The notes below the pieces were generated by a model. That model was not told where the DNA came from. It searched no databases and saw nothing but the letters and a program-made list of their open reading frames with translations. Shown here in pieces: positions 7,648 through 63,669 of a stretch of DNA of 64,000 nucleotides. Positions within the stretch are counted from its first letter, which is position 1. Each line of letters starts with the position of its first letter. Location of the stretch: the NCBI GenBank assembly GCA_016699425.1, contig CP064975.1:66979-130978 (forward strand), written 5' to 3'. Source of the stretch: Candidatus Moraniibacteriota bacterium (GTDB lineage: Bacteria; Patescibacteriota; Minisyncoccia; Moranbacterales; UBA1568). Position numbers and translations under genes: made by a program.

Positions 7648-7650
7648 CTG

Positions 7651-7687: not shown

Positions 7688-7738
7688 AGACTGAGGAGTT
7701 GAGTCATCAGCTGCGACGGTAACCATTGCTTATTAATA

Positions 7739-9428: not shown

Positions 9429-9450
9429 GTGTTTAAGTGGAGACGCGCGT

Positions 9451-10452: not shown

Positions 10453-10459
10453 CTCGCGT

Positions 10460-11143: not shown

Positions 11144-11499
11144 AGCCTATGGACCTGATCAACAAAAAATGTGTACCGTGCGAAGGGGGAGTAGATCCGC
11201 TCTCTTCGGAAGTGATTGCTACGTACCTAGCGGTCGTGGAGGGGTGGACGAATGAAGCCGACAAGAAGATTCATAAGGATTATGTTTTCAAGGATTTTGC
11301 GGAAGCGCTCACCTTCGTCAATCAGGTCGGCGCTATCGCCGAAGCAGAGGGGCATCACCCGGATATTTTGCTTCACGGCTGGAAGGAAGTAAGACTCACG
11401 CTTTTCACCCATGCCATCCAGGGACTCCACCTGAACGACTTCGTGCTCGCATCCAAGATCGACGCGATGTGGAAAAAGGACTTCGAAAAGAGTGTATAA
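11140..11499 (+). CDS. pterin-4a-carbinolamine dehydratase (PCD/DCoH)
   Basis: EGHHPD active-site motif and the right size; the start overlaps the rsmI stop (ATGA). Confidence 0.85.
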   Translation: MKPMDLINKKCVPCEGGVDPLSSEVIATYLAVVEGWTNEADKKIHKDYVFKDFAEALTFVNQVGAIAEAEGHHPDILLHGWKEVRLTLFTHAIQGLHLNDFVLASKIDAMWKKDFEKSV

Positions 11500-11527
11500 A
11501 AGGGTGTGATCGGTCGGTGGAAAGTTT

Positions 11528-11559
11528 CGAAGCCCGAGTACGCAATGCGTATCGGGCTT
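11528..11559 (+). terminator. strong hairpin (near-perfect 15-bp stem) downstream of PCD gene
   Basis: GAAGCCCGAGTACGCAATGCGTATCGGGCTTC; no T-run follows, so intrinsic-terminator status is uncertain. Confidence 0.35.
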
Positions 11560-11918
11560 CGGGTTGTGGGACGACAGTCGACTACTTCCTCGGGCCGAGG
11601 ACGGCGTTCGCGAGACCGTCATTTGCCAAAGTGCAGCTCCCACCAGTGCTGCAATCAATGGACAGTAGCAGGTAGAAACTGCCCACTACGATTGCGACCC
11701 CCAGGGTGACGAACAATGTCCCCCCGTGGTCGTACCAGAACATCCTGATACGACGATATTTGATACCATGGTATCGCATTCTACACCCCTTGTGAGTTGC
11801 TAGCCGTTCAGCTAGCTGGTTGGAAATAACAACAAACCATACCAGTATACATCATAGTGACCGGAAAGTCAAGGATGCTATACTGAAAGGGTCTGAATAA
11901 GCCATTTATTGCCTCAGG

Positions 11919-12329
11919 ATGCAATTTTATCTCGCAGTAAAAGGGATTGTCCGGAATGCAGCAGGAGAAATCCTCGTTGTGAAGCGCAGTGACCAGGATG
12001 ATCATCTGCCTGGTGTCTGGGAGACCGTCGGCGGGGGCGTCGACCATGAAGAGACGCCACAGCAAGCGCTCGAGCGGGAAATCATGGAAGAAGCGGGTAT
12101 CAAGGTTAGGATAAGCGAGCCCTTCAATGTCTTCACGTTTCGCAAGGATACCGGCGAGTTCAAGGTCGGGATCACCTTCCTCTGCGACACTGATGACACG
12201 GTGGTCACGCTCTCCGAAGAGCATAGTGAATACCGGTGGATCCGGCCGTCAACATTTAAGGACCTGGAATCAATCCCGTCGCTCTATCAAGAAATCGCTC
12301 TCTACGCACAAAAATATGCCGGGAAGTGA
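11919..12329 (+). CDS. NUDIX hydrolase
   Basis: Nudix box GGGVDHEETPQQALEREIMEEAGI (Gx5Ex7REUxEExGU). Confidence 0.85.
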   Translation: MQFYLAVKGIVRNAAGEILVVKRSDQDDHLPGVWETVGGGVDHEETPQQALEREIMEEAGIKVRISEPFNVFTFRKDTGEFKVGITFLCDTDDTVVTLSEEHSEYRWIRPSTFKDLESIPSLYQEIALYAQKYAGK

Positions 12330-12603
12330 AAGTTCAAGCAGCTTCCATTATGTCTATGTGTTGAGAAATATAGCGAAGAAATTTGTTTATGTTGGTGTGA
12401 CGAGTGACTTAAGGCGTCGATTGACAGAACATAATGAAAGCAAGGTGTTTTCGACAAAGCCATACGTACCTCTGAAGCTGATATACTATGAAGCATGTTG
12501 CGAAGGAAAGGATGCGTTGCGTCGTGAAAAGTATCTCAAAACCAGTCAAGGTGCTCGCTTATTGAGAAGGCGCCTGAAAGAATATTTCTACAATAATACT
12601 TGA
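12317..12603 (+). CDS. GIY-YIG domain nuclease family protein
   Basis: YVYVLRN...FVYVGVTSDLRRRLTEHN is the canonical GIY-YIG motif; the start was set to ATG at 12317 inside ORF 12127..12603, overlapping the Nudix stop by 13 nt. Confidence 0.75.
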
Positions 12604-12619
12604 ACTTCTACTTCCCGGT

Positions 12620-14059
12620 ATGCCCAAGCCATTTTTCATCACTACCGCCATTGATTATGTGAATGCGGCACCCCATGTCGGGCATGCCGTGGAGAAAGTG
12701 CTGACCGATGTTGTAGCGCGCTATCAAGTGCTCCAACGCGGAAAAGAGGATGTGTATTTCCTCACGGGTTCGGACGAGAACAGTCTGAAGAATGTCCAAG
12801 CAGCTGAGCGAGTGGGGCGACCAGTTGCGGAGTTTGTCGCAGAGAATGCCGAGAGTTTCAAGGCACTCGCTGGTTCGCTCGATCTCTCCTTTGACCAGTT
12901 TATTCGCACAACTGAACCGCGGCATTTTGAGGGGGCGAAAAAAATGTGGAATGCGTTCAAGAAAGAAGATTTATATTTGAAGAAGTACAGTGGCCTCTAC
13001 TGTGTCGGCTGCGAAGAATTCAAAATGGAGAAGGATCTCGTTGACGGTCTCTGTCCCGATCATAAGGTTGCGCCGGAAGTAGTAGAGGAAGAGAATTGGT
13101 TTTTCAAGCTCTCAAACTACGCTGATAGATTGCTTGCACTGATTGAGAGTGGTGAACTGAAGATCTATCCCGATTATCGGAAGAACGAAGTCGTATCGTT
13201 CATCAAGATGGGACTGGAGGATTTCTCGATCTCGCGTTCGGTCGCGCGGGCTAAAGGCTGGGGCGTCCCGGTGCCGGGTGACGAGAGTCAGATCATGTAT
13301 GTGTGGGTGGATGCCCTGTCCAACTACATCACGGCGCTCGATTATGCGACAGATGGCGAACTGTACAAAAAATTCTGGACGAGTGATTCCGAGCGCGTGC
13401 ATGTCATCGGCAAAGGCATCCTCCGTTTCCATGCGATCTATTGGCCAGCGATGCTCCTGTCGGCCGGACTGCCGCTCCCGACGACGATCTATGCCCACGA
13501 GTACCTGACGATCAATGGGCAAAAGATGTCGAAGACGCTCGGTAACGTCATCTATCCCGACGAGCTCGTGGAGAAATTCGGCGTCGACGGGACGCGCTAC
13601 CTCCTCCTCACCGCGTTGCCGTACTCAAAAGATGGCGATTTGTCCTGGGAGAAAATGACCGAGAAGTATAATGCCGACCTGGCGAATGGTCTCGGCAATC
13701 TTGTCTCGCGCGTGATGAAGCTTTCTGAGAAGCTCGAGGTTTCTTTTTCTGTAGAAGATGATTTCGGAACGAAAGAAACATCGGATCTTCTTGAAGAATT
13801 TCGAGTGGCTGATGCGTTGGCGCATATCTGGACTTATATTGCCGTCCTTAACCGTTCAATAGATGAGAATAAGCCCTGGGAACTCGTTAAGACTGATTAC
13901 AAAAAGTTTGAGAGTAATCATCTCGTTTTGATGCAGGAAATCTACAAGATAGCAGTATTGCTCAGGCCATTCCTCCCATCAACATCAGAAAAAATTGAAA
14001 CTGCACTCAAGACGGGGAAAGTTGAACCGTTGTTTCAGCGGATCAAGACTGAAAAATGA
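12620..14059 (+). CDS. metG: methionine--tRNA ligase (short form)
   Basis: HIGH motif (HVGHA), KMSKS motif (QKMSKT), Cys knuckle CVGCEEF...CPDH, and the ENWFFKLS motif. Confidence 0.9.
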   Translation: MPKPFFITTAIDYVNAAPHVGHAVEKVLTDVVARYQVLQRGKEDVYFLTGSDENSLKNVQAAERVGRPVAEFVAENAESFKALAGSLDLSFDQFIRTTEPRHFEGAKKMWNAFKKEDLYLKKYSGLYCVGCEEFKMEKDLVDGLCPDHKVAPEVVEEENWFFKLSNYADRLLALIESGELKIYPDYRKNEVVSFIKMGLEDFSISRSVARAKGWGVPVPGDESQIMYVWVDALSNYITALDYATDGELYKKFWTSDSERVHVIGKGILRFHAIYWPAMLLSAGLPLPTTIYAHEYLTINGQKMSKTLGNVIYPDELVEKFGVDGTRYLLLTALPYSKDGDLSWEKMTEKYNADLANGLGNLVSRVMKLSEKLEVSFSVEDDFGTKETSDLLEEFRVADALAHIWTYIAVLNRSIDENKPWELVKTDYKKFESNHLVLMQEIYKIAVLLRPFLPSTSEKIETALKTGKVEPLFQRIKTEK

Positions 14060-21446: not shown

Positions 21447-21455
21447 GAGATTTTT

Positions 21456-22349
21456 ATGCCATCCGGGAAAGACATTCGCCGACGTATCAAGGGCGTAAAG
21501 AGTACAGGAAAGATCACTCGAGCGATGGAGATGATTTCGGCTGTCAAAATGCGCCGGGCGGTCGAACGGGCACTGGCGATGCGGCCCTATGCGCAGGCAG
21601 TACTCTCCGTCCTCCATCGGGTGACGGTCGCCGTGAAACACGAACGGCATCCGCTCCTCCTCGAACGGCCGGTCAAGCGGGAGCTGTATGTGGTCATCAC
21701 GTCCAATCGTGGGCTGTGTGGTTCTTTCAATACCCAAGTCTTGAGAAAACTGCGTGAAGCACGGGCCGAAGACAAGGATCGGACGGCGGCATTTATCACA
21801 CTCGGCAAGAAAGGTGAACAGGCGGTTCGTCGGATGCAAGGTGATATCATCGCATCCTTTCCAGAAGTTTTCGAGTATCCACGAGTGACCGATATGCAGC
21901 CTATCGTGCGCATCATCCTGGACGAATTCCTCGCGGGCCGGGTGGACCGGGTGGTCATGGTCTACACGGACTATGTCTCGGCCCTGGTCCAAAAGGTGAA
22001 GGTCCGGGCGCTTCTCCCGGCGACCGAAAAGGACGCCAAGAAAATGCTCGACGAAATCGGACTGGAAACCAACGGAGACATGGGTGGTGGTGACTTCCTC
22101 ATCGAGCCGTTTCCCGAGACGGTGCTCGAGACGATCATCCCGCGGCTCATCGAAGCCGAGCTGTATCATGCCGTGCTCGAGTCCAATGCTTCACAGGAAG
22201 CCGCGCGCATGGTCGCGATGCGCAGTGCCACCGATGCCGCCCAAGAGATGACCGCTGACCTCACTCTTGCCTACAATCAGCTCCGTCAAGGCAAGATCAC
22301 TCAGGAGATCGCCGAGCTCAGTGCGGGCATGGCCGCGGTGCAGGGGTAG
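21456..22349 (+). CDS. atpG: F0F1 ATP synthase subunit gamma
   Basis: Conserved N-terminus IKGVKSTGKITRAMEMISAVKMRRA and C-terminal helix ITQEIAELSAG. Confidence 0.9.
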   Translation: MPSGKDIRRRIKGVKSTGKITRAMEMISAVKMRRAVERALAMRPYAQAVLSVLHRVTVAVKHERHPLLLERPVKRELYVVITSNRGLCGSFNTQVLRKLREARAEDKDRTAAFITLGKKGEQAVRRMQGDIIASFPEVFEYPRVTDMQPIVRIILDEFLAGRVDRVVMVYTDYVSALVQKVKVRALLPATEKDAKKMLDEIGLETNGDMGGGDFLIEPFPETVLETIIPRLIEAELYHAVLESNASQEAARMVAMRSATDAAQEMTADLTLAYNQLRQGKITQEIAELSAGMAAVQG

Positions 22350-22360
22350 GGACTGGGATG
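22345..22360 (+). repeat. 16-bp direct repeat copy 1 (GGTAGGGACTGGGATG), contains atpG stop codon
   Basis: Identical to 22958..22973. Confidence 0.8.
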
Positions 22361-22377
22361 CATGATGTACGAGTACT

Positions 22378-22962
22378 ATGAAGAAGACGATGAAAAACCT
22401 GGTAGCGGTTCCGAGCGAACATATCATCAAGCAGATTTTCTGGCTGCGTGGTGAGAAAGTGATGCTGGACTCCGATCTAGCAGAAATGTATGCTGTTGAA
22501 GTTAAGGTTCTGAATCAGGCGATCAAGCGAAATATCGAGCGCTTTCCGAAGGACTTTATGTTTCAGCTGACGTTCGAAGAGGCGAATCTGATGCTTGGTT
22601 CAAGGTCACAGTCTGTGACCTTGAACGAGGAAGGAGATAGCCGGATGCAGCCACAAACTGTGACTCCAAAGAGAGGTAAGAACATCAAATATGCCCCCTA
22701 TGCTTTCACCGAACAGGGAGTGGCGATGCTGTCGAGTGTGCTCAAGAGCGAGCGAGCGGTCCAGGTGAATATCCAGATCATCCGGACCTTCGTCGAGCTA
22801 CGGAAGATGCTTGTCACGCACGAGGCGTTGCGGAAGAAGATCGAGGCGATGGAACGAAAATACGATAAGCGGTTCCGAGCGGTGTTTGATGTATTGCGGC
22901 AGCTTTTGAAGGAAGAGGCAGAGCCGAAAAAGAAAATCGGATTCGAGGAAAAGAAAAGGTAG
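22378..22962 (+). CDS. ORF6N-domain (KilA-N-like) DNA-binding protein
   Basis: FWLRGEKVMLDSDLAEMYAVEVKVLNQAIKRNIERFPKDFMFQL is the ORF6N signature; the gene interrupts the atp operon between atpG and atpD. Confidence 0.8.
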   Translation: MKKTMKNLVAVPSEHIIKQIFWLRGEKVMLDSDLAEMYAVEVKVLNQAIKRNIERFPKDFMFQLTFEEANLMLGSRSQSVTLNEEGDSRMQPQTVTPKRGKNIKYAPYAFTEQGVAMLSSVLKSERAVQVNIQIIRTFVELRKMLVTHEALRKKIEAMERKYDKRFRAVFDVLRQLLKEEAEPKKKIGFEEKKR

Positions 22963-22973
22963 GGACTGGGATG
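22958..22973 (+). repeat. 16-bp direct repeat copy 2 (GGTAGGGACTGGGATG), contains ORF6N stop codon
   Basis: Identical to 22345..22360; immediately followed by the TGGAATCTGGAATCTTGG mini-repeat. Confidence 0.8.
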
Positions 22974-23116
22974 TGGAATCTGGAATCTTGGGGTGAAGAC
23001 CAAAATTCTAGATTCTAAATTCGAGACTCGGGTTTAGACAGTTGTTTGGAAAAAAGAAAAAAGACATACTATTGCGGTATGTCAGCGCGTAGTGTTGCTG
23101 ATGTGGCAGCCTATCA

Positions 23117-24913: not shown

Positions 24914-25360
24914 ATGATCTCTCTCACTCTCAAATTGGTCACACCCGAACGCGCCGTTGCTCTGATGGAGGCGGCGGCAGTGACGCTCCCCATTGCGGAT
25001 GGAGATGTGACTATCCTCCCCACGCACACGCCGTATATCGGTGCGCTCAAGGCGGGCGAAGTCATCATTCGTTTGACGGATGGTAAGACGGAAAGCTTGG
25101 CGGTTTCTGGTGGATTTGTGGAGTTTGATACTAATACGCTCTCTATCTTAGCGGATACTGCCGAACGAGCTGAGGAGATTGATATGGAACGAGCCGAAGC
25201 GGCACGCGCACGGGCCGAAGCTATTCAGCTCAAGCAAGGAGCGATGGGCGAGGAAGAATACGCGCGTGTGGCGGCAGCTCTGGAAAAGGAAATGATTCGC
25301 ATCAGGGTAGTCCGCAAGCATCGGAGTCGCGTCGGACCGAATGTCATATCGCAGGAATAA
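24914..25360 (+). CDS. atpC: F0F1 ATP synthase subunit epsilon
   Basis: Beta-sandwich N-domain plus a helical C-terminus, in the expected position after atpD. Confidence 0.85.
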   Translation: MISLTLKLVTPERAVALMEAAAVTLPIADGDVTILPTHTPYIGALKAGEVIIRLTDGKTESLAVSGGFVEFDTNTLSILADTAERAEEIDMERAEAARARAEAIQLKQGAMGEEEYARVAAALEKEMIRIRVVRKHRSRVGPNVISQE

Positions 25361-25487: not shown

Positions 25488-26504
25488 ATGGCAGTGCGAC
25501 GCTCAGAGTGGCGGAAGCATGTGCGGGTGGGCGGATTCCTTCTTGTGTTTGTGCTTTTCGCTCCGGTACTTGGTATTTTCCTCGTGCAGACGCTTTCGCT
25601 GATTCCAAAACGGATACATGTCTCGATGCCGTCTCCGAGCTATCAGGACCAGTCGATGGTGTACAAGGGAGGGGTGATGATGGATCAACCGGGCGTGGCG
25701 GCAGCTGGTATAGATGGCGATATGCTGTGGCGCGGCGAACGGGATATCGTCCCGATGCCGATGGATGCAGTGACCATCCCGAGTTGGGGAACGACGACAC
25801 CAGTTTCGGCGGTTGACCAGAAAATGGTGAAAAGCGCCTCGCTTGATCTACGCGCTCAGAGTTTGGTATGGACAAGTAATCAGATTCAGGCATCGGCGAA
25901 GAATGTCGGCGGATATGTCGAGAGCGCCAATGTCTCGCAGCCGAAGAATGATGTCCAGACCGCATGGCTCGTCGTCCGAGTCCCCGTAGACCGTCTCGAC
26001 GTAGTGATCGAAGAAGCGAAGAAGGTGGCATCGTCGGTCATCAACGAGAACCTGAGCGCCGGAGACGTTACTGATCAGAGTATCGATCTCACGGCCCGGC
26101 TGAATGCGAAGCGAGCCGAAGAAACAGCGCTCGTCTCCCTCCTCGACAAGGCGACCAAAGTGAGTGATGTCATCGAGGTGACGGATCGTTTGGCGTTCGT
26201 TCGGAGTGAGATAGAGGGACTCGATGCGCAGCAGCGCCGGCTAGAAGGGCAGGTCGCCATGTCGTCGCTCTCGATATCGATTACCGAAGATCCGCGCGTC
26301 GTAATCAATGGCGATTCGGTGCGTGACGGCAATGTGATAAAGCAGTCAGTCAATGACCTCACTCGATGGTTGATCGCCCTGGGGAGTGCCCTCGGAGCTA
26401 TCATCATCAGCGGTCTCCCGGTGGTTCTGGTGTACGGATTTTTCCTCTGGGTTTTCTACCGGATCGGTGTCTTTGTCGCCGAGCGTGTCGTCGGACGGAA
26501 ATAG
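25488..26504 (+). CDS. DUF4349-like membrane-anchored protein
   Basis: N-terminal TM, central coiled-coil (LEGQVAMSSLSISI), C-terminal TM; this architecture is typical of the DUF4349 family. Confidence 0.55.
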   Translation: MAVRRSEWRKHVRVGGFLLVFVLFAPVLGIFLVQTLSLIPKRIHVSMPSPSYQDQSMVYKGGVMMDQPGVAAAGIDGDMLWRGERDIVPMPMDAVTIPSWGTTTPVSAVDQKMVKSASLDLRAQSLVWTSNQIQASAKNVGGYVESANVSQPKNDVQTAWLVVRVPVDRLDVVIEEAKKVASSVINENLSAGDVTDQSIDLTARLNAKRAEETALVSLLDKATKVSDVIEVTDRLAFVRSEIEGLDAQQRRLEGQVAMSSLSISITEDPRVVINGDSVRDGNVIKQSVNDLTRWLIALGSALGAIIISGLPVVLVYGFFLWVFYRIGVFVAERVVGRK

Positions 26505-26522: not shown

Positions 26523-26556
26523 AAAAAGCCCGACTCCTTGAGCCGGGCTTTTTGTC
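26523..26556 (+). terminator. intrinsic terminator
   Basis: AAAAAGCCCGACTCCTTGAGCCGGGCTTTTTGT. Confidence 0.6.
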
Positions 26557-26612
26557 CGCTTTCTTTTTCGGGTGATATACTGCAATCAAATATACTCAAA
26601 CCAAATTCTACC

Positions 26613-28853
26613 ATGCCCCGCTCTCTTCTCATCTTCCTCGCTCTCTTCATTCTCGCTACCACGACCCTCTCCCTCGTCCCCACCACGTCTCTCCACGCAG
26701 GCCTCATTCCCTGCGGCCTCTCCACCCCGGATCCCGATATCCTCGCTAGTACGGATCCTACTCAAGGCACATCCCGTTGCACCCTCTGCCACCTGTTAGT
26801 TGGCTTAAGTCGCATCGTCGTCTTCCTCCGAAACATCATGGCCGCAGTCGCGGTCGCCGTCTTGGTCGCGATGGCCATCATCTACCTCACCTCAGGGGGG
26901 AATGAAGGTCGCATGACCTTTGCCAAAGGAGGCATGTTCGCGGCTTTGATTGGACTCGGTGTCGTCCTCTTAGCCTGGGTCACGGTCAACTTCATCTTGA
27001 CGCTTCCCATCATCAATACTACAACCGGTCTCATCCGTACCGGTTGGGATACGGTGAGCTGTAGTACCACATCCCTCTCGACGGGAGCGGTGGCTACAAC
27101 CACCCCCACCCCTAGTACGGGCGGAGGTGGAGCAGGTGGCACGGGTGGAGGCCTGGGAGGTGGAGGTGATCTCGTCACCTTGCCCAGAGATACATCCGGC
27201 GCGGTCATTGTTGCTCCCATCGCTTCGCCAGCGAGCCTTGGTGTGACGGCTCCGTCTGCTTCGAGTGCAATCCTCTCATGGGGAGCAGTGCCTGGAGCGA
27301 CCGGGTATGAGGTGGAACGCTGTACGGGACTGACCTGTACCGTCTTTACCTCCCTGGGTACGTCCAATACCACGAGTTTTACCGACACCACCCTCACTCC
27401 CGGTACCAGCTATTCCTACCATGTCCGTGCGATCACCTCAGCTGGAGTCTCAACCTGGTCGAATGTGGTGGGAGTGACGACACCTGCCAATCCTGGGAGT
27501 ACGCCCGGGACCGGGGCGATGTGTCCCGATCCGGGGTCTCTCCAATTCCTGTATGGCAAGAGCTGGGTGAGTGATTTCACCCAAGCCGGCAACAACCTGC
27601 CCGTCCGTTGGGAAGTGAGTGTCGATGCCAACAACCAGCTCACCTATCGAGTCACCTGTCGGATGAGTCTCCTCGGCTGGGGAGCTGATCTGTCCCCTCA
27701 GATCACCGTCCCCATTGGGAGTGTCACAGGCAGCTCCTTCCAGGTCTTGAGTCCGGGGACCCAACGCCTGACGAATGCTCAGGGCAACTACTGTGAAGTG
27801 ACCCTCAATGCTTCGATCCTTTCCTACACCCCAAGGACGAGTGCCACGATGACCTTCCAGGGGCAGAACTTTGTCACGGGGGCGTGTTCGGGAGGGAGTG
27901 GGAGTGATGGGGGTGGAGGGAGTGGGGGGACGGATGGAGGAGGGGTGGTGTTGCCTGGGACGGGTGGCGAAGGGGCTTCTCGCTGGCTTGATCCTGCCGG
28001 TGGTGTCACTGTAAATGGTGAGCACTTCAATACGACAGCAGATATCACACGGGGATTGAATGCATATTATACCGGAGTCAATCAACTTGTCAGGAACCGA
28101 TGTGATGCAAGGCATTTGGGCAATCTGGGTGGGCATACGATTTGGATATACGATGATACTGGTACCGAATGTACCGCATACCGGGAGACGATGTCTGATT
28201 ACCAGGAAGCTTCCTATGCACTTCAGCGTGCCGAGAATCCTGATATGGTTACAATCAATGAGCAGCCCAGGTCCTGTAGCTTTGCGCAATACGCACCCGG
28301 CCCAGATATAAAAAGCACCGCATGGAATTGTAGCGCCGATGGGTTCACCTGCGGTTCCCTCGATCCTGGACAGTGGCGCCGGACAGAAGGGATTTTGATC
28401 CAGCTCTCGCCTGGTATCGCGTATACTATTCCCTACACCTATAATCCTGCCACTGATGGTGGTTTGGGATTTAATCTGTCCGTTCATCACTGGTTTGGTG
28501 ATGCCCCCTACAATAATGTTGATCTCTGGCTGTCGGCATCGCCGGGACAGGCTGCTGATACGGATTGTACATCCGCACTTGCTGGCGGAAGTGGAGGAAC
28601 TCCCTCGATCACCGTGAAGACAGGTTATTGCGAGCCGCCGCGTACCGGATACATCAATATCAAGGCGACATCGTGCCAGTATTTCAACACGAACGAACCC
28701 TACCAATTTAGGAGAGGGGGTGGAGACACTTGTTTGGTTAGGATTTTCGGCCCGGATGAGCTTGGCAGTTCCCCGATGCAAATCACCCTGAGTAACGGAA
28801 CAACCGGCGGTCGATCCTACACCTGCCCAGCAGATGTGAATAGCCCCAGGTAA
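26613..28853 (+). CDS. secreted TrbC/VirB2-like pilin domain fused to fibronectin type III and large C-terminal domain
   Basis: Signal peptide, then a two-TM segment with YLTSGGNEG between the helices (the same architecture as the 62-63.7 kb pilins), then a Gly-rich linker, an FN3-like module (SWGAVPGATGYEVERC...YSYHVRAITSAGVS) and ~400 aa of Cys-containing domain; the start was set to ATG at 26613 (the ORF-track start is TTG). Confidence 0.7.
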   Translation: MPRSLLIFLALFILATTTLSLVPTTSLHAGLIPCGLSTPDPDILASTDPTQGTSRCTLCHLLVGLSRIVVFLRNIMAAVAVAVLVAMAIIYLTSGGNEGRMTFAKGGMFAALIGLGVVLLAWVTVNFILTLPIINTTTGLIRTGWDTVSCSTTSLSTGAVATTTPTPSTGGGGAGGTGGGLGGGGDLVTLPRDTSGAVIVAPIASPASLGVTAPSASSAILSWGAVPGATGYEVERCTGLTCTVFTSLGTSNTTSFTDTTLTPGTSYSYHVRAITSAGVSTWSNVVGVTTPANPGSTPGTGAMCPDPGSLQFLYGKSWVSDFTQAGNNLPVRWEVSVDANNQLTYRVTCRMSLLGWGADLSPQITVPIGSVTGSSFQVLSPGTQRLTNAQGNYCEVTLNASILSYTPRTSATMTFQGQNFVTGACSGGSGSDGGGGSGGTDGGGVVLPGTGGEGASRWLDPAGGVTVNGEHFNTTADITRGLNAYYTGVNQLVRNRCDARHLGNLGGHTIWIYDDTGTECTAYRETMSDYQEASYALQRAENPDMVTINEQPRSCSFAQYAPGPDIKSTAWNCSADGFTCGSLDPGQWRRTEGILIQLSPGIAYTIPYTYNPATDGGLGFNLSVHHWFGDAPYNNVDLWLSASPGQAADTDCTSALAGGSGGTPSITVKTGYCEPPRTGYINIKATSCQYFNTNEPYQFRRGGGDTCLVRIFGPDELGSSPMQITLSNGTTGGRSYTCPADVNSPR

Positions 28854-37108: not shown

Positions 37109-38287
37109 ATGTCCTCTTACTCTCTTACCAAATCTCGAGCGTTCCAGTATGTTGGGATATTGTTGGCGCTGGCCACCCTCGCGGCGGGTTATTGGTATTT
37201 CTCCGTTCGCGCGAGTACGCTCAATAAGTCGCCCACCAGCTCCCTCACGAGTGGTCTGGTCGGTTACTGGACCTTCGATGGAGCGGACATCAGTGGCACT
37301 ACGGCGACGGACCGGAGCGGCAATGCAAACAATGGCACCCTCACCAATGGCCCGACGAAGACCGAAGGCAAACTTGGCCAGGCTTTGTCCTTTGATGGAG
37401 TGGATTCAACGGGTGGCTACATCGGATTACCCGGAGTGGTGATGACGAACACAAACACCATTTCGATGTGGGTCAGAAAAACAAGCAGTTATTATAAAGC
37501 ATTATTCACTCAGAATGTCAGTGTAGGAATAAACTGGTTAGGAGCAAGCGGAATCTGTGGTTGGGATGGCGATCGAATTAGTTTTACATATTCGGGTTCT
37601 GAACATTGCAGCACTGGGACGGTTGTAGCGAACGAATGGACACACATCGTGATTACGAATAACGCAGGGACGGCAACGTTCTACATCAACGGCGCCCAAA
37701 GTGGAACGACAACAAGCGCCCCAGGCTTAACAGCGAATTTTATTGCGTCGGATGATGGACTGTACAATAGATTTGACGGCTCCCTCGACGAAGTCCGCAT
37801 CTACAACCGCGCGCTGTCGGCCGGCGAAGTGAAGTCGCTCTATGACCTGGGTGCATCCGACAAAGTAAACACGAGTGTCTCCCAGCTCCAAGGCACTGGC
37901 CGATTGGACTCTGGCCTCGCTGGCTACTGGAAGCTGGACGAAAACACGGGCACGAGCGCCGGCGATGCCAGTACCAATGGCAATAGTGGCACTCTGACCA
38001 ACGGCCCCACCTGGACGACGGGACAGATCAAAACAGGGGTGGACTTTGACGGCACCGATGACTACATCACGGTCGCTGATCCGGCGAGCGGGGGTGCTCG
38101 ATGCGGTGGGGGACCAATACTACACGCTGTCGGGCTGGTTCAACCGCGACACCGCCACGACGACCGACACCATCCTCGCCAAGAGCAATGGGACAGCGGA
38201 CGCCATGGGCTATCTGGTCTATCTCGATGCCACGACGGACAAGCTCGTCTTCGCTACCCGCAGTGCGTTAGGAGACAATACCCTTGA
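37109..38287 (+). CDS. LamG/concanavalin-A-like lectin repeat surface protein, N-terminal part (frame breaks near 38090)
   Basis: TM anchor followed by LamG modules (LDEVRIYNRALSAGEV); sense is lost after DYITVADPAS at a G-run. Confidence 0.6.
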   Translation: MSSYSLTKSRAFQYVGILLALATLAAGYWYFSVRASTLNKSPTSSLTSGLVGYWTFDGADISGTTATDRSGNANNGTLTNGPTKTEGKLGQALSFDGVDSTGGYIGLPGVVMTNTNTISMWVRKTSSYYKALFTQNVSVGINWLGASGICGWDGDRISFTYSGSEHCSTGTVVANEWTHIVITNNAGTATFYINGAQSGTTTSAPGLTANFIASDDGLYNRFDGSLDEVRIYNRALSAGEVKSLYDLGASDKVNTSVSQLQGTGRLDSGLAGYWKLDENTGTSAGDASTNGNSGTLTNGPTWTTGQIKTGVDFDGTDDYITVADPASGGARCGGGPILHAVGLVQPRHRHDDRHHPRQEQWDSGRHGLSGLSRCHDGQARLRYPQCVRRQYP

Positions 38288-40586
38288 AACGACGAGTGCG
38301 TATACCGCGCCGGGTTGGCACCATTTCGCTATCATCTTCAATATCCCGCGGACGGGGGGCAACTTTGGTCAGATATATATCGATGGCGGTATTCAAAATG
38401 ACAATTCTATCGGTGGTGGGTATGCTGGCTCGATCGAGAGTACACGCGCTTTCGTCATCGGGGCGGAGAGCGATGGCGGCAATCCCTTCGACGGCAAGCT
38501 TGACGAAATCCGCCTGTACAATCGCGCCTTGTCCGCCGATGAAGTCGCCCAGCTGTACCGTCTCACCATGCCCACCGGTGTCGACACGAGTCTGAAGGGC
38601 TACTGGAGTTTCAATGGGAGTGATACCACCGGTACGACGGCCTATGATCGCAGCGGCGCGGGGAACAACGGGACGCTCACCAATGGCCCAACCATCGCGG
38701 AAGGCAAGCTCGGCCAGGCGCTGAACTTTGATGGAGTGGATGATAGTGTTGGAATCACCGGACTCTCGTTTCCCGACTGGCAGTCAGCGAGCGGATATAC
38801 CATATCATTGTGGGTGAAGGATTTCCCTGATGATCTCCAGGATATAGTCTTGTTTGAGATGTGGAATTCTGGAGATAATGATGAACGGATCCGTCTCGGA
38901 AGCAATAACTATCCTCCATACCAGCGGTTGCAAGTGATGGCCGGCCGGCAATATTCCCAGTCGGAGGCGTATATCCCGGAGTACGTATATCCATCTCTTG
39001 ACGACACCCGGATATGGCATCAATTAGTTGTGACGGCGAATAGTTCAAAGCTGGCGTTATTCCACAACGGAGTGGAAGTGGCAAGCGATACCGCGTTCAC
39101 GACTTTCGGATCGTTTTCATTTGATTCCATCCGTATCGGTGGCGGCGCGAGTGACTACAACGGCAACCCGAGCAACAGCTACGCCGGGGCCTTGGTCGAC
39201 GAAGTCCGTATTTACAACCGGACGCTCACGACGTCGGAAATTACCGCACTCTATAATCTGGGTGCATCCGACAAAGTAAACACGAGTGTCTCCCAGCTCC
39301 AAGGCACTGGCCGATTGGACTCTGGCCTCGCTGGCTACTGGAAGCTGGACGAAAACACGGGCACAAGCGCGGCTGATACCAGTACCAATGCGAGTACCGG
39401 GACCCTCACTAATGGCCCCACCTGGACCACGGGCCGCATCGGGAGCGCGGTGAACTTTGATGGGGTGAATGATGAAATAGGAGTAAGTGATGCGCCGGCT
39501 TTAGATTTCGGGGTCGGCGAAGCATTTTCGTATGCTGGGTGGTTCAATCTTAGTGCTGTGGACGGCAATGAACCACTTGTTATGAAGAGTACGAACGATG
39601 CCTCACAGGGGTATGGTCTTTTTATTCATACTACCGACCTATTCAATATAATGCTGAATGATGCAACGGATGATTGTAGTGATTATGTTGACCTAAATAC
39701 CACCCTCACCGGTGCCTGGCATCACTACGTGTGGTCCGTCGACACGAGCCACATCTCGCGCCTCTATGTTGATGGTACGCTACGCCTCACGACCGACTGT
39801 TCTGTCTCCGGTGATCTCTCTAATGCGGATGCCCTGTCTTTGGGGTGGATGTATGCCGGTACTTCCCAGTATTTTAGTGGCAAACAGGACGACGTTCGCC
39901 TCTACAACCGAGCGCTGTCCGCCGATGAAGTCGCTCAGCTGTACCGACTGACATCACCGACTGGCGTCGACACGAGTCTGAAGGGCTACTGGTCCTTCAA
40001 TGGGCCGGATGTCTCGGGCACGACCGCCTCTGACAGGAGCGGCGCGGGCAACAATGGCACCCTCACCAACGGCCCAACCATCACCGAAGGCAAACTCGGC
40101 CAGGCTTTGTCCTTTGACGGGACAAATGACACTGTTAGTATCTCTCCGACCGGCTTACCCACCGGATCACGTACTATCTCTGTGTGGGCAAAGGCGCCTC
40201 TGCTTGATGGTTCCTATCGTGGTGTTATCGGATATGGAAATCAGAATAATGGGGAGGCATTTGCAATCCAGATTAATTCCTCAAACGAATGGGTAATCAC
40301 TGGGTGGGGCGCTCCCAATGCTGTTAGTGGAGGTGCAGTGGTGCTGAATCAGTGGACTCATATCGTTGGTACGTATAGTGGCGGAAACGCGAGTATCTAT
40401 GTAAATGGTGTCCTTGTTGGTGGTCCGGCGGCCATTACTAGTGCTCCGAATCTTAACTATTCTGCCATTGGGTCTCGTCTGGATGGAGGAGGAGATTATT
40501 TCCCCGGTCAGATAGACGAAGTCCGCATCTACAATCGCGTGTTGTCGGATACCGAAGTGAAAGCGCTCTACAATAGTGGCCGCTAG
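38046..40586 (+). CDS. LamG/concanavalin-A-like lectin repeat surface protein, continuation (5 further LamG modules)
   Basis: Repeated (L/V)DE(I/V)R(I/L)YNRALSA(D/G)EV motifs; sense begins at GVLDAVGDQYYTLSGWFN, which continues the 37109 ORF in another frame. Confidence 0.8.
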   Translation: MTAPMTTSRSLIRRAGVLDAVGDQYYTLSGWFNRDTATTTDTILAKSNGTADAMGYLVYLDATTDKLVFATRSALGDNTLETTSAYTAPGWHHFAIIFNIPRTGGNFGQIYIDGGIQNDNSIGGGYAGSIESTRAFVIGAESDGGNPFDGKLDEIRLYNRALSADEVAQLYRLTMPTGVDTSLKGYWSFNGSDTTGTTAYDRSGAGNNGTLTNGPTIAEGKLGQALNFDGVDDSVGITGLSFPDWQSASGYTISLWVKDFPDDLQDIVLFEMWNSGDNDERIRLGSNNYPPYQRLQVMAGRQYSQSEAYIPEYVYPSLDDTRIWHQLVVTANSSKLALFHNGVEVASDTAFTTFGSFSFDSIRIGGGASDYNGNPSNSYAGALVDEVRIYNRTLTTSEITALYNLGASDKVNTSVSQLQGTGRLDSGLAGYWKLDENTGTSAADTSTNASTGTLTNGPTWTTGRIGSAVNFDGVNDEIGVSDAPALDFGVGEAFSYAGWFNLSAVDGNEPLVMKSTNDASQGYGLFIHTTDLFNIMLNDATDDCSDYVDLNTTLTGAWHHYVWSVDTSHISRLYVDGTLRLTTDCSVSGDLSNADALSLGWMYAGTSQYFSGKQDDVRLYNRALSADEVAQLYRLTSPTGVDTSLKGYWSFNGPDVSGTTASDRSGAGNNGTLTNGPTITEGKLGQALSFDGTNDTVSISPTGLPTGSRTISVWAKAPLLDGSYRGVIGYGNQNNGEAFAIQINSSNEWVITGWGAPNAVSGGAVVLNQWTHIVGTYSGGNASIYVNGVLVGGPAAITSAPNLNYSAIGSRLDGGGDYFPGQIDEVRIYNRVLSDTEVKALYNSGR

Positions 40587-42231: not shown

Positions 42232-44643
42232 ATGTCCGCCATGCACTGGTATGTAAAAAATAAAAACCTAAAAACGCATATATTTCTCCTAGCGATCGCA
42301 TTGGCGACGGGGAGTCTCATTGGTTGGGGATACACTTCCCAATCGGTTTTGGCGCAATCAATAAACCAGATTTCAGTCGCTGTTTCGCTCTTTGACGCCG
42401 AAAGCAAGATAATCACCAACGGCGAGTACGATGTGCGGTTCGCTCTGTACCGGACCGACCGGACGACAGCGGATGCCTATCCCTCGAATGCGGATAATCG
42501 GCTTTGGGAGGAAACCCAGAAAGTGATCGTGAAAAATGGTGTGTTGCGGGCCTTCCTCGGATCAGCGACAGCGCTGCCGGCGAGCCTGAGTTTTGAAAGC
42601 GGGGATTATTATCTCGGTATCCGGGTCGGCACTGATTCGGAAATGGTGCCGCGCAAGAAACTCGGCGCGGTCCCATCTGCTCTCAATTCCCAATTCCTGC
42701 GCGGCAAGACATTCGGCACGAGCGAAGGCAATCTGCTCGTGCTCGACAAGAACGGCAAGGTGAATCTTAAACAGCTGCCCGTGGGGACTGGCAATAACCA
42801 GCTCGTGCGTGGTGACGATGCACGCTTCGGCGATATCCACCAGCAGAACACGGACACAGGGACAGACTCCGAAGTCTTTACGATCGGGAGCGGTACTGGA
42901 CCAACGGGTGCAAACTTCGATCTCGCGGTTTCGAGTTCGAGCACACCGCCCGCAATCCGTTACAATGGGTCGACGCAGAGCTGGCAGGTCTCCAACGATG
43001 GTTCAGCTTTCTCCGACATTTCGACCACGGCCTCCGGCAGTTTCCTCCCGCTGTCGGGTGGGACGATGACGGGGGACATCACCTTCGCTGGGACACAGGC
43101 GTTCACCAATCTCATCGATCTCGGCGCGGATACTGTCGGGAATTATGTCGCGACGATCGCAGGCGGCAATGGTGTCTCGGGTTCGGCCTCGGGCGAAGGT
43201 GTGGCAGCCACGCTCGATATCGACCTCCTCGACAGCACGGATGGGGCGGGTGCGACGTCATCGAACAGCGGCTTGGAATTTAGCGGCGCGGGCTCGGACG
43301 AACTTTCGCTCCTGCAGGGTTGCGCCAATGGTCAGGGCATCTCTTGGAATGATGCGACCAATGTGTGGGAATGTGCGAGCTTTTCCTCGGGTCTCTCGGG
43401 GACAGGGACAGCAGGGAATGTTGCGTACTGGAGCGGGGCGAGTTCACTCGGGAGTGAAGCGCAGCTCAACGTCTCGCGCGGTGGAACTGGAGTAAGTGGA
43501 TCAGCCGCCAGCAATGGATCATTGCTCATCGGCAACGGTACTGGCTATACACTCAATACCCTCGCGGTGGGCAACGGTGTCACGGTCACGAACGGCGCCG
43601 GCACGATCACGCTTGGTCTCGATGTGACGACGACGGGTACGACGATCAATGCTTCATCGAATTCCGGCCTTGAACTCACTGCTGACGGCCTACGGTTGCT
43701 CGGTGGCTGCAGCAACGACCAAGTGTTGTCATGGAACTCGACGCTTGAGACATGGGGTTGCTCCAACAAGACCGGCGGCACGAGCGATTGGACGAGTGCT
43801 GGCTCATTCACATACCTGACGGATACGGCGGATGACCTCGTTGTCGGCGGCTCGACCACGGACACGGGATTTTTCTTTGATGTGTCAGCTTCAACGCTCG
43901 CGTTTGAGGGGACAGCGGCTGATGGTTTCGAAACGACATTGGCGGTCACGAATCCGACCGCTGATCGGACCGTGACGCTGCCGAATGTCACAGGCACGGT
44001 CATCACGACTGGCAACCTGACCGATATCACGGCGGTCGGGACGATTGCTTCGGGCGTGTGGAATGGCACGACGCTCGCGGTGGCAAATGGTGGGACGGGG
44101 GCAACGAGCCTGAACAATCTCATCGCCCTCACCACCGACACCACCGGTAACTACGTCCAGTCCATCACCAACGGTAACGGTCTCACTGGGGGTGCCGCCG
44201 GCAGCGAAGGAGCGACCCTCACCCTCGGCCTCGACCTCCTCGACAGTGCGGATGGCACTGGTTCCACCGCTTCTAACTCTGGTCTCGAATTCCAAGGTGC
44301 TTCATCCAATGAACTCGCCTTGCTTCAGGGGTGTGCAGACAATGAGATTCTCTCCTGGAACAATGCGACCAATGTCTGGCAGTGTGCCACGGTCTCTGGT
44401 GTCGGCGGTATCACGGGAAGCGGAACAAATGGCCAAGTCACCTACTGGACTGGGACGAGTACGCTCGCCGGTGAGAATCAACTCTCTGTCACACGAGGTG
44501 GGACCGGTATCGGTAGCTACACCATCGGTGATCTCCTCTATGCGACGGGTGCCACCACACTCGCTGCTCTCCCCCGATGTCGCGACAGGCAATGTCCTCC
44601 TCTCAGGTGGTATCGGTGTCGCTCCATCTTGGGGCAAAGGTGA
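42232..44643 (+). CDS. giant Gly/Thr/Ser-rich repetitive surface protein, fragment 1 of 4 (N-terminal signal anchor)
   Basis: N-terminal TM, then tail-fibre-like repeats (GTGATSLN..., LLQGCA.N..LSWN...W.C); it ends where two +1 homopolymer insertions occur. Confidence 0.75.
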   Translation: MSAMHWYVKNKNLKTHIFLLAIALATGSLIGWGYTSQSVLAQSINQISVAVSLFDAESKIITNGEYDVRFALYRTDRTTADAYPSNADNRLWEETQKVIVKNGVLRAFLGSATALPASLSFESGDYYLGIRVGTDSEMVPRKKLGAVPSALNSQFLRGKTFGTSEGNLLVLDKNGKVNLKQLPVGTGNNQLVRGDDARFGDIHQQNTDTGTDSEVFTIGSGTGPTGANFDLAVSSSSTPPAIRYNGSTQSWQVSNDGSAFSDISTTASGSFLPLSGGTMTGDITFAGTQAFTNLIDLGADTVGNYVATIAGGNGVSGSASGEGVAATLDIDLLDSTDGAGATSSNSGLEFSGAGSDELSLLQGCANGQGISWNDATNVWECASFSSGLSGTGTAGNVAYWSGASSLGSEAQLNVSRGGTGVSGSAASNGSLLIGNGTGYTLNTLAVGNGVTVTNGAGTITLGLDVTTTGTTINASSNSGLELTADGLRLLGGCSNDQVLSWNSTLETWGCSNKTGGTSDWTSAGSFTYLTDTADDLVVGGSTTDTGFFFDVSASTLAFEGTAADGFETTLAVTNPTADRTVTLPNVTGTVITTGNLTDITAVGTIASGVWNGTTLAVANGGTGATSLNNLIALTTDTTGNYVQSITNGNGLTGGAAGSEGATLTLGLDLLDSADGTGSTASNSGLEFQGASSNELALLQGCADNEILSWNNATNVWQCATVSGVGGITGSGTNGQVTYWTGTSTLAGENQLSVTRGGTGIGSYTIGDLLYATGATTLAALPRCRDRQCPPLRWYRCRSILGQR

Positions 44644-61940: not shown

Positions 61941-62255
61941 ATGTTCAGACCTATCATAGGCAGTATCATTTTCAGTAGCACTCTCTTTCCGAGGAGCGTC
62001 TTCGCCGGCGTGATCGATGAAGCCCAACCTCTGTCGGTTGGGTTGGCCAAGATCCTTGACTTTTTATTGTCAATCATCGGTGTAGTTGCTATCATTGGAT
62101 TAGTGATTGCGGGGCTCTTGTATTTCTTCGCGGCGGGTGACATGCGTCAGATCGCCCTCGCCAAGAAAGCGACGCTCGCGGCCATCACCGGCATCGTCAT
62201 CGCGCTCGGGGGCTATGTCCTCATCCGGACGATTGCGACGTTTGTCGCTGGTTGA
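61941..62255 (+). CDS. TrbC/VirB2-like pilin family protein (paralog 1)
   Basis: Signal peptide plus two TM helices separated by LLYFFAAGDMRQIALAKKA. Confidence 0.6.
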   Translation: MFRPIIGSIIFSSTLFPRSVFAGVIDEAQPLSVGLAKILDFLLSIIGVVAIIGLVIAGLLYFFAAGDMRQIALAKKATLAAITGIVIALGGYVLIRTIATFVAG

Positions 62256-62318
62256 ACACAAAAATAAAAAATCCTTGTCAGTCAGACTGACGAGAGAAAA
62301 GAAAGGGGGTGAGAGGTT

Positions 62319-62699
62319 ATGCAAAAATTCAAAAAATTGGCTATCGGTGCGGTGAACGGTCTCGTGCTGCTCGCCCCAGCCACAGCGTTAGCGCTGACAA
62401 ATGGTAGCTGGGCTGATCGGGGGACGACGAACTATCAGTCATCCGGACTGCCGACAGGAACGATTTACCAGATTATCTCGTCAACCCTGTCCTGGCTCCT
62501 GGCCATCCTCGGTTTCATCGCGGTCATCGGTTTCGTGATATCGGGCATTCTCTATCTCACCGCTGCTGGCAACGAGACACAGATCGAGAAGGCGAAGAGC
62601 GCCATGACGTACTCCATCATTGGCGTCATCGTCGCCCTCATGGGCTACGTGATCATCCAAGCTGTCAACGCTTGGCTCGGGACATCAGCGAACTTCTAG
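62319..62699 (+). CDS. TrbC/VirB2-like pilin family protein (paralog 2)
   Basis: GGGGGTGAG RBS; signal peptide ending AxA; ILYLTAAGNETQIEKAKSAMTYSIIGVIVALMGYVIIQAVNAWL. Confidence 0.7.
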   Translation: MQKFKKLAIGAVNGLVLLAPATALALTNGSWADRGTTNYQSSGLPTGTIYQIISSTLSWLLAILGFIAVIGFVISGILYLTAAGNETQIEKAKSAMTYSIIGVIVALMGYVIIQAVNAWLGTSANF

Positions 62700-62835
62700 T
62701 GTTCTTTTCGATCGAAAAGAGAAAGGCAATCCCGCCAGAGCGGGGTTGTTTTCTTTTCATCCGGACTGGGGGTGTACAGACGATGCTCATGTAGTGGTAT
62801 ACTAGAAGGGAGGCTAAATAAGCTAACCGTATTCG

Positions 62836-63207
62836 GTGAGTATGTTGCACAAAAAACTGGTTTTTATTGTACTCGGGGCGGCCATCACGTTTCTTCCGAA
62901 CATCGTCACAGCGACGGGTTGGATAGCAGGACAAACCAATGTCGCGAATTCCAATCTTCCTGTTTCGAGTGTGTACGGCATCATCTCCAATACTCTGTCC
63001 TGGCTTCTCGCCGTTCTTGGTTTCATCGCGGTCATGGGCTTTGTTCTTTCAGGAATCCAATACCTCTTGGCGGCGGGGGATGAAGGTATGGCTGAGCGGG
63101 CGAAAAATGCTATGAAGTACTCCATTATCGGCGTCATCGTCGCTCTCGGTGGGTATGTGGCTATTTTTGCCATCAATAACTGGCTCAACGCCGGAACAAA
63201 TTTCTAA
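62836..63207 (+). CDS. TrbC/VirB2-like pilin family protein (paralog 3)
   Basis: IQYLLAAGDEGMAERAKNAMKYSIIGVIVALGGYVAIFAINNWL; the start may be the ATG at 62842. Confidence 0.7.
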   Translation: MSMLHKKLVFIVLGAAITFLPNIVTATGWIAGQTNVANSNLPVSSVYGIISNTLSWLLAVLGFIAVMGFVLSGIQYLLAAGDEGMAERAKNAMKYSIIGVIVALGGYVAIFAINNWLNAGTNF

Positions 63208-63282
63208 GAGCGTGGTTTCAGGATTTTTCTGACGGGTGCGTAACATAAATACAAAAATCAGCGTATGTCGGTATCTGTGAGT

Positions 63283-63669
63283 ATGAAAAAAATTCTTCCC
63301 GCTTTTGTGGTTGCGGTCTTTCTTCTGGTGACGTGGATTCAACCAGTGGCAGCGACTGGCTGTCCCACTGGGTATGCTATGACGGCTGGAGTATGTTTTC
63401 CAACTGGTACCGGTCTCTCTAGTCAGCCATTGGCGACTATCATCATGGGAGTGATGAACTGGATGCTCGCCGTCCTGGGCTTTATCGCCGTCCTGGGATT
63501 TGTCATCTCGGGGATGCAGTACCTGTTATCAGCCGGGGATGAAGGAATGGTCGAGACCGCCAAACGCAACATGAAATACTCTATCATCGGTGTCGTCGTC
63601 GCCCTCTCGGGCCGTGTCCTCATCATGGCGATCAATAATTTGCTGAACGCCAGCACGACACCATTTTAA
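63283..63669 (+). CDS. TrbC/VirB2-like pilin family protein (paralog 4)
   Basis: MQYLLSAGDEGMVETAKRNMKYSIIGVVVALSGRVLIMAINNLL; the start was trimmed to MKKILPAFVV. Confidence 0.7.
   Translation: MKKILPAFVVAVFLLVTWIQPVAATGCPTGYAMTAGVCFPTGTGLSSQPLATIIMGVMNWMLAVLGFIAVLGFVISGMQYLLSAGDEGMVETAKRNMKYSIIGVVVALSGRVLIMAINNLLNASTTPF

Follow-up and report, generated by a model that had tools for sequence, protein, structure and literature searches.

This study concerns a single gene in a 64,000-nucleotide stretch of a Candidatus Moraniibacteriota bacterium genome (assembly GCA_016699425.1, contig CP064975.1, positions 66,979 to 130,978 of the forward strand; the whole stretch is hereafter the window), which encodes a VirB2-like pilin module followed by a large C-terminal passenger. 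The gene occupies window positions 26613-28853 on the plus strand as a single open reading frame (ORF; ATG at 26613, stop at 28851-28853, 746 aa), and its MPRSLL start is common to the 746-aa protein and a related partial protein, P0010. The parts of the pilin module, including its two transmembrane helices (TM1 and TM2), are as follows.

26613..26699, plus strand: signal peptide, aa 1-29; signal peptidase I is predicted to cut at LHA/G (hydrophobic at 1-27; A29 invariant)
26700..26795, plus strand: extracytoplasmic N-segment, aa 30-61, GLIPCG...RCTLCHL, with cysteines C34, C56 and C59 invariant in the subfamily alignment
26796..27008, plus strand: two-helix hairpin, aa 62-132, made up of TM1, the loop YLTSGGNEGRMTFAKGG and TM2; core of PF18895 (Pfam, hhalign, AlphaFold, hydropathy)
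27009..27074, plus strand: extracytoplasmic C-tail, aa 133-154, with R142, W145 and C150 invariant in the subfamily alignment

A sequence-only reading of this stretch had proposed a signal peptide and then two TM helices around YLTSGGNEG, and three lines of evidence agree with it: hydropathy, with hydrophobic stretches at 1-27, 58-97 and 101-136; AlphaFold (AF2), which places helices at 51-93 and 98-130 (pLDDT 62-76); and Pfam, which matches aa 66-128 to T4SS_pilin (PF18895; profile positions 10-71 of 71, 30.2 bits, E 4.8e-7) above the gathering cut-off of 26.6 bits. The AF2 run on the whole protein used 15 sequences and returned a mean pLDDT of 47, with the N-segment and the tail at low confidence. 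The protein thus shows two traits of PF18895 members, a hidden Markov model (HMM) match above the cut-off and a signal peptide with two TM helices around a charged loop; a third, that of a small protein consisting of the module only, is absent, as the protein has 746 aa and 592 residues follow the module. A PDB sequence search with the module profile gave no match. Two other classes of surface protein were considered and rejected: a lipoprotein, because L-I-P-C is not a lipobox sequence and cleavage is predicted at an AxA/G site, and a type IV pilin, because Pfam finds no N_methyl motif and the signal peptide is of type I with AxA/G.

The window also contains an ordinary patescibacterial pilin array, with which the module can be compared.

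61941..63669, plus strand: tandem array of four small VirB2-like pilin genes encoding 104, 126, 123 and 134 aa (PF18895)

All four array ORFs (61941-62255, 62319-62699, 62836-63207 and 63265-63669) match PF18895, at 31.7-49.4 bits, and the array pilins are 37-55% identical to the 62319-62699 protein, which forms the first row of the alignment; the window stops 330 bp past the array. A MAFFT alignment of the five modules leaves Y91, G96, A104, K105, G114, L119 and V123 invariant, with a shared loop that reads YLTSGGNEG in the fusion protein and YL(T/L)AAG(N/D)E(G/T) in the array. The HMMs of either set match exactly these five modules out of 652 six-frame window ORFs, and a profile-profile comparison (hhalign) of the fusion subfamily with the array pilins aligns 63 columns at 33% identity with a probability of 95% and E 3.9e-8. 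The sequence-only reading had described the N-terminus as VirB2-like and had asked for its alignment with the small paralogues, naming generic hydrophobicity as the outcome that would undo the likeness. The loop motif proves to be conserved and, because of the loop alignment, the hhalign E-value and the specificity of the HMMs, the similarity goes beyond generic hydrophobicity; the N-terminus is a genuine pilin module, more than a hydrophobic anchor (Pfam, hhalign). The array pilins share only 22-27% identity with the fusion module and do not carry the Cys-bearing N-segment motif; they belong to a different subfamily.

The stand-alone subfamily and its genomic locations

When the first 154 aa served as query, 14 proteins were recovered, every one of them from a metagenome-assembled genome (MAG) of Candidatus Moraniibacteriota type. 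Nine are complete proteins of 143-157 aa that are 52-59% identical over their full length, one being annotated 'pilin'; over the 154 aa of the fusion module, identity to the stand-alone pilins is 55-59%. The metagenome scan contributed one extra locus only (L019). Four of the MAG records (L011, L012, L015 and L016) are titled 'uncultured Bdellovibrionales bacterium' and are probably mislabelled candidate phyla radiation (CPR) bins. In the 12-sequence subfamily alignment 50 columns are invariant, four cysteines included; among these columns are A29, the IPCG and CTLCH motifs (C34, C56, C59), an LRN with which TM1 begins, the loop Y-x-T-S-x-G-x-E-x-R-M-x-F-A-K (R100, K105), LLAW-xx-VNF in TM2 and the tail residues R142, W145 and C150. 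The cleavage site reads AEA/G in the relatives, G30 being nearly invariant. The fused proteins retain all invariant module positions.

The stand-alone pilins terminate 3-5 residues past a CxTxS motif and the passenger of the fusion protein starts exactly there, so the passenger is joined at the natural C-terminus of the pilin. This common end point of the stand-alone members would also suit a protein that is cut just past the CxTxS tail, the passenger being released as a secreted protein and the pilin acting as its export vehicle, and C-terminal processing and cyclisation have been reported for TrbC and VirB2 (cited in bioRxiv 10.1101/2022.04.28.489814 and PMC13434634). We consider release of this kind very unlikely, given that no protease gene is linked, that the sequence bears no mark of a cleavage site, and that a flexible linker and an FN3 (fibronectin type III) spacer are typical of a tethered rather than a released protein.

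The gene in the window lies downstream of the ATP synthase operon, whose last gene is atpC (24914-25360), and of a DUF4349 gene (25488-26504), and it is followed by leuS, which begins at 29046. The 108-bp gap preceding the ATG holds one further feature.

26527..26581, plus strand: terminator-like hairpin after the DUF4349 gene and a promoter-like extended -10, TGATATACT (consensus scans, weak)

Because this gap holds a terminator-like hairpin and an extended -10, both weak consensus matches, the fusion gene appears to be transcribed on its own. The JBATNG counterpart of the gene, from another Moraniibacteriota MAG that served as our comparison genome, likewise follows atpC and a DUF4349 gene. 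The stand-alone genes are placed elsewhere: in at least six species (L002/L011, L005/L014, L008/L010, L013, L015 and L019) the pilin gene is divergent from pilM, at a distance of about 100-200 bp, and lies directly upstream of clpB. The adjoining type IV pilus (T4P) cluster comprises pilM, two small genes (pilN/O), pilB, pilT, pilC, N_methyl pilins and a prepilin peptidase. The same pilM-clpB slot is held by two extended forms, P0003 (L007) and P0014 (L021), and there the extended protein thus replaces the plain pilin. Yet other neighbours are found at L012, L016 and L020. Among the window ORFs scanned with Pfam no T4P machinery gene was found. A pilin of the type IV secretion system (T4SS) type fixed beside a T4P operon is a puzzling arrangement.

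One answer would be that the Cys-bearing subfamily works with the T4P apparatus, or as an independent envelope factor, and that the passenger is displayed there. The stand-alone gene adjoins pilM of a complete T4P cluster in all of the species just named, the extended P0003 and P0014 sit in that very slot, and the module is distant from the array pilins. The species concerned are closely related, however (PilM 73-77% and ClpB 75-82% identical), so the synteny may simply be inherited; in L002, where the slot lies at 8769-13050, the pilin gene and clpB share 28 nt, so that clpB and not pilM would be its likely partner in transcription; the linkage to pilM is lost in the window, L012, L016 and L020; and neither a class III signal peptide nor an N_methyl motif is present in the subfamily. 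A function with a different machine is for these reasons doubtful, although it is a better candidate than release of the passenger by cleavage.

Passenger domains and the mosaic history of the gene

The passenger was described in the sequence-only reading as about 600 aa made up of a Gly-rich linker, a fibronectin-III module and a Cys-containing domain. This description holds, with the refinement that the Cys-containing part consists of two units split by a second Gly-rich linker.

27075..27221, plus strand: linker 1, aa 155-203, Gly/Thr/Pro-rich, 31% Gly (composition; pLDDT <50)
27222..27485, plus strand: FN3 domain, aa 204-291, with the Cys pair C237/C242 (Pfam, AF2, Foldseek)
27522..27902, plus strand: middle domain, aa 304-430, ten strands and four Cys, without a Pfam model (AF2)
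27903..27998, plus strand: second Gly-rich linker (linker 3), aa 431-462, 41% Gly (composition), with a breakpoint near 27921
27999..28853, plus strand: orphan C-terminal region, aa 463-746 (284 aa), with 10 Cys, plus the stop codon (searches, G+C profile)

The FN3 domain is matched by Pfam over aa 205-286 (38 bits, the cut-off being 25), modelled by AF2 at pLDDT 74-86 and recovered by Foldseek with E-values down to 2e-7 and TM-scores up to 0.84 on the target. For the middle domain an 8-sequence alignment yielded an AF2 model with pLDDT 88.9 and pTM 0.80; Pfam offers no credible match (best E 0.07, one member per family), and a full HMMER scan of 1.84 billion representatives found seven relatives. 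Two of its relatives carry no pilin module, namely P0027, with one TM-anchored copy, and P0029, with two tandem copies. Structure prediction for the C-terminal part of the protein, which the sequence-only reading had called for, was thus successful for the middle domain and failed for the terminal region. The last approximately 130 aa of that region share the pattern LSxSPG...C...CxPPxTGYxN with the C-terminal domains of P0001 (BLASTP, 33% over 82 aa, E 1e-6).

The number of cysteines is even in every unit, which would fit disulfide-bonded extracellular domains, and the FN3 domain, the even Cys counts and a calycin-like barrel together support the view that the passenger is an extracellular binding region, as far as the models allow. 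Several results leave a binding role less secure. Foldseek relates the middle domain to up-and-down barrels in the PDB (the Shewanella lipoprotein 3lhn, YedD 4hwm, ToxS, lipocalins and avidins) with weak scores only (TM-score 0.45-0.53, E >= 0.04), and the domain is therefore calycin-like in shape and not a member of the calycins. The C-terminal 307 aa have no homologue in a word-indexed search of 5.8 billion proteins and none in the HMMER scan of 1.84 billion representatives, in which all seven hits fell on the middle domain, and they return only noise against the PDB; AF2 stays below pLDDT 45 in the C-terminal region and gives no usable model.

A sortase-type LPXTG anchor was rejected because the sole LPxTG motif, LPGTG at aa 447-451 (27951-27965), is internal to the linker; 295 residues follow it, no basic tail comes after it, and the protein ends in ...CPADVNSPR without a hydrophobic segment. 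The related locus L016 does have an LPxTG protein together with a sortase-like gene (4962-7866).

Scans of species-representative genomes and metagenomes, together with protein searches, brought to light modules of this kind with other passengers.

L012, 1229 aa: a pair of CBM6/CBM35 modules together with a right-handed beta-helix
L016, 530 aa: Cys-rich passenger that matches no Pfam family
P0014, an additional 60 aa: Cys-rich tail (Cys knot)
P0003, P0002 and P0026: one or two FN3 domains and a middle domain (FN3 and barrel in P0003 and P0002)
P0025, 737 aa: more distant module, two FN3 domains, a middle domain and more
Window clade: the window protein, P0001, P0010 and P0021

Four of these modules compare with stand-alone pilins as follows: that of L012 is 92% identical to P0017, those of P0014 and P0003 are 89% and 77% identical to P0013, and that of the window protein is 68% identical to P0011. 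When the modules are placed on a neighbour-joining tree, extended forms are interspersed with the stand-alone pilins, and at least four separate C-terminal accretions have therefore taken place on one narrow subfamily. Judging from the CBM6 modules and beta-helix of L012, the passengers on this scaffold would deal with extracellular ligands, probably glycans. At L007 (4124-4542) P0003 ends at an in-frame TAA, after which about 25 homologous codons and then a frameshifted ORF follow; this ORF matches the post-barrel domain of P0025 and P0028 and represents a C-terminal domain in decay. The end point of P0003 is shared by P0002, which comes from another sample.

Comparison with JBATNG reveals a mosaic gene, in which one segment stands apart.

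27029..27921, plus strand: exchanged cassette comprising the module tail, linker, FN3 and middle domain (nucleotide identity to JBATNG)

The atp operon, the DUF4349 gene and the first part of the pilin module have 78-83% nucleotide identity to JBATNG, whereas the cassette has 97.8% (20 differences in 893 nt) and the protein sequence of its middle domain is identical (100%). Past 27921, inside the Gly-rich linker, no similarity to JBATNG is left, and the downstream gene is ftsK in JBATNG as opposed to leuS in the window. The FN3-barrel cassette was recently exchanged between lineages. Three different C-terminal regions follow a common ...SGGSGSDGGGG in the window protein, P0001 and P0024, and the G+C content is 0.59-0.61 upstream compared with 0.50-0.53 in the C-terminal region. 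Codon differences to JBATNG number 31 synonymous and 15 non-synonymous, 12 of the latter falling in the diverged module; these counts indicate purifying selection on a gene whose distal parts are being exchanged, a combination that would be typical of recognition surface proteins. A diversity-generating retroelement or silent cassettes were considered as a source of the C-terminal variation and rejected, since the window holds no second copy or partial repeat; no reverse transcriptase was met among the window ORFs scanned with Pfam.

Another segment that was exchanged recently lies at window positions 21455-23054, which are 95.75% identical to JBATNG between flanks of 78-83%. It carries atpG and an ORF6N/Rha-like gene (22378-22962) inserted between atpG and atpD, and is possibly a small mobile or phage-derived insert.

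Some of these observations could be taken to mean that the long ORF arose by chimeric assembly, or that it is a fusion in decay and without function. The copy in the closest complete genome, P0021, is frameshifted, the post-barrel region at L007 is a relic with an in-frame TAA and then a frameshift, and the JBATNG assembly breaks within the gene, where two contigs overlap by exactly 127 nt, the signature of a k=127 assembly-graph branch. Against this, the ORF is uninterrupted over 746 codons with an even Cys count in each unit, synonymous changes exceed non-synonymous ones, several species carry fused forms, and the junction between pilin and passenger recurs in independent assemblies (the window, P0010, P0021 and P0001), so that an artefact or dead gene is, in our judgement, the least credible of the explanations considered and extremely improbable. 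P0021 (IPJ68_03950, on a 1.2-Mb contig) is the same gene annotated as a protein of only 270 aa, which begins inside TM1 and loses frame within the FN3 domain; its defects are likely indel errors of a long-read assembly, the other option being a real pseudogene.

Membrane topology, display and comparison with known pilins

In VirB2/TraA pilins both termini lie on the trans side of the membrane and the inter-helix loop later lines the lumen, and in the F- and T-pilus the pilin C-terminus is on the outer face of the filament, which serves as an analogy for the fusion protein. With a signal peptide, the N-terminus out, TM1, a short charged loop, TM2 and the C-terminus out, the 592-residue passenger would therefore lie outside the membrane. 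Our data on balance favour a modular VirB2-like pilin, in which extracellular domains are grafted on the outward-facing C-terminus of a complete and constrained PF18895-type module; we hold this to be probable, by a modest measure. The protein would be exported by the Sec pathway and cleaved by signal peptidase I at LHA/G, as its sequence predicts, and the helices, to judge from hydropathy, charge and homology, would enter the membrane as a hairpin whose two ends face outwards and whose E98/R100/K105 loop faces inwards. A comparable arrangement is known for VirB2, which is held in the membrane by two TM helices and whose lumen-facing residues are positively charged (bioRxiv 10.1101/2022.04.28.489814). 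TM2 would then act as the export signal for the passenger, which would fold outside with its disulfides formed. The module may do what the stand-alone pilin does, namely dock to an assembly machine or pack with pilins, and the passenger, on its 49-residue linker and FN3 spacer, may be shown on the surface of the cell or filament as a ligand-binding subunit of low abundance. The mosaic makes recombination at the Gly-rich linkers evident, and this recombination may serve to diversify the distal passenger and so alter its binding.

The sequence-only reading had suggested a tip adhesin or pilus-displayed binding domain for the same appendage as that of the array pilins. Outward display is well supported by the predicted topology, and the look of the passenger and CBM6 on the module of a relative would suit a binding region; a tip adhesin of a common appendage is plausible yet doubtful, in view of the separate subfamily, the lack of T4SS genes among the window ORFs scanned with Pfam, and the position of the stand-alone orthologues beside pilM and clpB.

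The modular pilin interpretation itself has to be weighed against several points. The fusion gene is located between the DUF4349 gene and leuS, 33 kb from the pilin array, and is encoded neither in that array nor near virB4 or other T4SS genes among the window ORFs scanned; genes for a T4SS ATPase, VirB6 and VirB8 were not found among the window ORFs scanned with Pfam. The stand-alone orthologues are linked to the T4P cluster and clpB and not to virB4. A passenger of about 60 kDa on every subunit cannot pack in a VirB2-type helix, so the protein could be a minor or terminal subunit only, and no patescibacterial VirB2 pilus has yet been visualised (PMC12857230). Table S1 of a survey of patescibacterial genomes enters Moranbacteria genomes as VirB4-positive (PMC12102498), and a T4SS is therefore likely to be present elsewhere in the source genome.

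The same evidence could be accommodated by a plain membrane anchor, that is, a hairpin co-opted as a two-helix anchor for a surface adhesin or ligand-binder that never enters a filament and has no role in a T4SS. In its favour, no T4SS gene was found among the neighbouring ORFs scanned with Pfam, the passenger size argues against regular polymerisation, the Gly/Thr linkers and FN3 spacer would be long enough to cross the cell wall from the membrane, and other large surface proteins in the window use simple N-terminal TM anchors. A mere anchor, however, does not need 50 invariant positions, with the loop and four extracytoplasmic Cys among them, across fused and stand-alone forms; moreover, a stand-alone pilin and one of the fused modules share 92% identity, and fused forms take the place of the stand-alone gene at a conserved locus. 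We regard the plain anchor as possible but unlikely, and as the most serious competitor of the modular pilin.

Patescibacterial VirB2-like pilins are encoded in arrays of 2-11 genes (PMC12102498), and such an array together with a T4SS is essential in Southlakia epibionticum, the only genetically tractable patescibacterium (PMC10633639). The fusion protein resembles these pilins in its signal peptide, hairpin, Y-x-x-x-G-x-E loop and HMM match above the cut-off. It differs in that the known pilins are small and lie in arrays or near virB4, whereas the fusion is solitary, in a housekeeping neighbourhood, and carries a passenger of 592 residues; its subfamily also has the extra N-segment GLIPCG...CTLCHL and four invariant Cys. 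With the TrbC/VirB2/TraA family (PF04956) of the T-, F- and RP4 pilus it shares the topology and a positively charged inter-helix loop, yet it has no match to PF04956 at E <= 1, while the array paralogue at 61941-62255 reaches 26.3 bits against a cut-off of 27.9. We know of no natural large C-terminal passenger in the TrbC/VirB2/TraA family.

A closer parallel in design is found in the modular type IV pilins, of which more than 1,200 proteins in 264 architectures have been described, including PilB (vWA) and PilC (lectin) of Streptococcus sanguinis and CofB (PMC8179133). In both cases a small assembly module is joined by a linker to a grafted functional module, and many architectures occur on one scaffold. 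The fold and the machine are unrelated, however, the class III signal peptide and N_methyl motif are absent, and a hairpin takes the place of a helix-plus-head, so that the parallel is one of analogy only. The LPXTG-anchored adhesins of the PrgB type in Gram-positive bacteria are similar in offering a possible cell-cell contact role for a monoderm T4SS, but the fusion protein has no homology to them, lacks a C-terminal LPXTG signal and would be anchored by its pilin hairpin. Adhesins of the T4SS, PrgB-like ones included, did not turn up in Patescibacteria in a survey that covered 3,035 genomes (PMC12102498), and a review calls the possible pilus of monoderm Patescibacteria an open question (PMC12857230). 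Pilins with passengers are not mentioned in this literature on patescibacterial VirB2-like pilins (PMC12102498, PMC10633639 and PMC12857230), and the supplementary table of the survey lists PF18895 hits without lengths (PMC12102498). What is new here is a PF18895 pilin with a grafted, swappable passenger; PF18895 pilins themselves were already known.

A bolder extension, which we put forward tentatively and consider rather unlikely as a whole, is that the subfamily is a plug-and-play display scaffold for lectins, glycan-active beta-helices, calycin-like barrels and orphan Cys-rich domains, recombined between species at the linkers, and that the fused subunits are built into or prime a T4SS filament. 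If so, they would be the missing T4SS adhesins of Patescibacteria, on which the host specificity of these epibionts would depend, and they would be, to our knowledge, the first natural VirB2-family pilins with a functional passenger. A pilin that carries a binding domain is a testable candidate for host recognition by ultra-small epibionts, and the passenger offers a handle to which antibodies or tags could be directed in order to learn whether there is a VirB2-type filament at all. Polyphyletic grafting and the exchange of cassettes between species show that the pilin C-terminus tolerates large cargo, and with this the 'modular pilin' principle, known from type IV pili, is extended to the conjugative-pilin fold, which is unrelated. 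Should the protein be only a membrane-anchored adhesin, it would still represent a new mode of anchoring, of more modest interest.

Other large surface proteins are encoded near some of these genes. Multi-repeat Laminin_G_3 (concanavalin-like) proteins with an N-terminal TM anchor occur in the window at 37109-40586, at L012 (5498-9760) and at L020 (871-3777); in the window two such ORFs have 240 nt in common, perhaps because of a frameshift. At L012 these giants lie just upstream of the pilin fusion, and at L020 further upstream, which points to a possible recurrent surface-protein neighbourhood. Window positions 42232-58461 hold giant ORFs (803, 2173, 236 and 2185 aa) that belong to no Pfam family and in which TGTLPVxNGGTGA recurs; they probably encode huge repetitive surface proteins, possibly broken by frameshifts or assembly collapse. 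Exact duplications are found among them, the last 70 aa of 44577-51098 and 51146-51856 being identical and the N-termini of the ORFs beginning at 51146 and 51904 nearly so.

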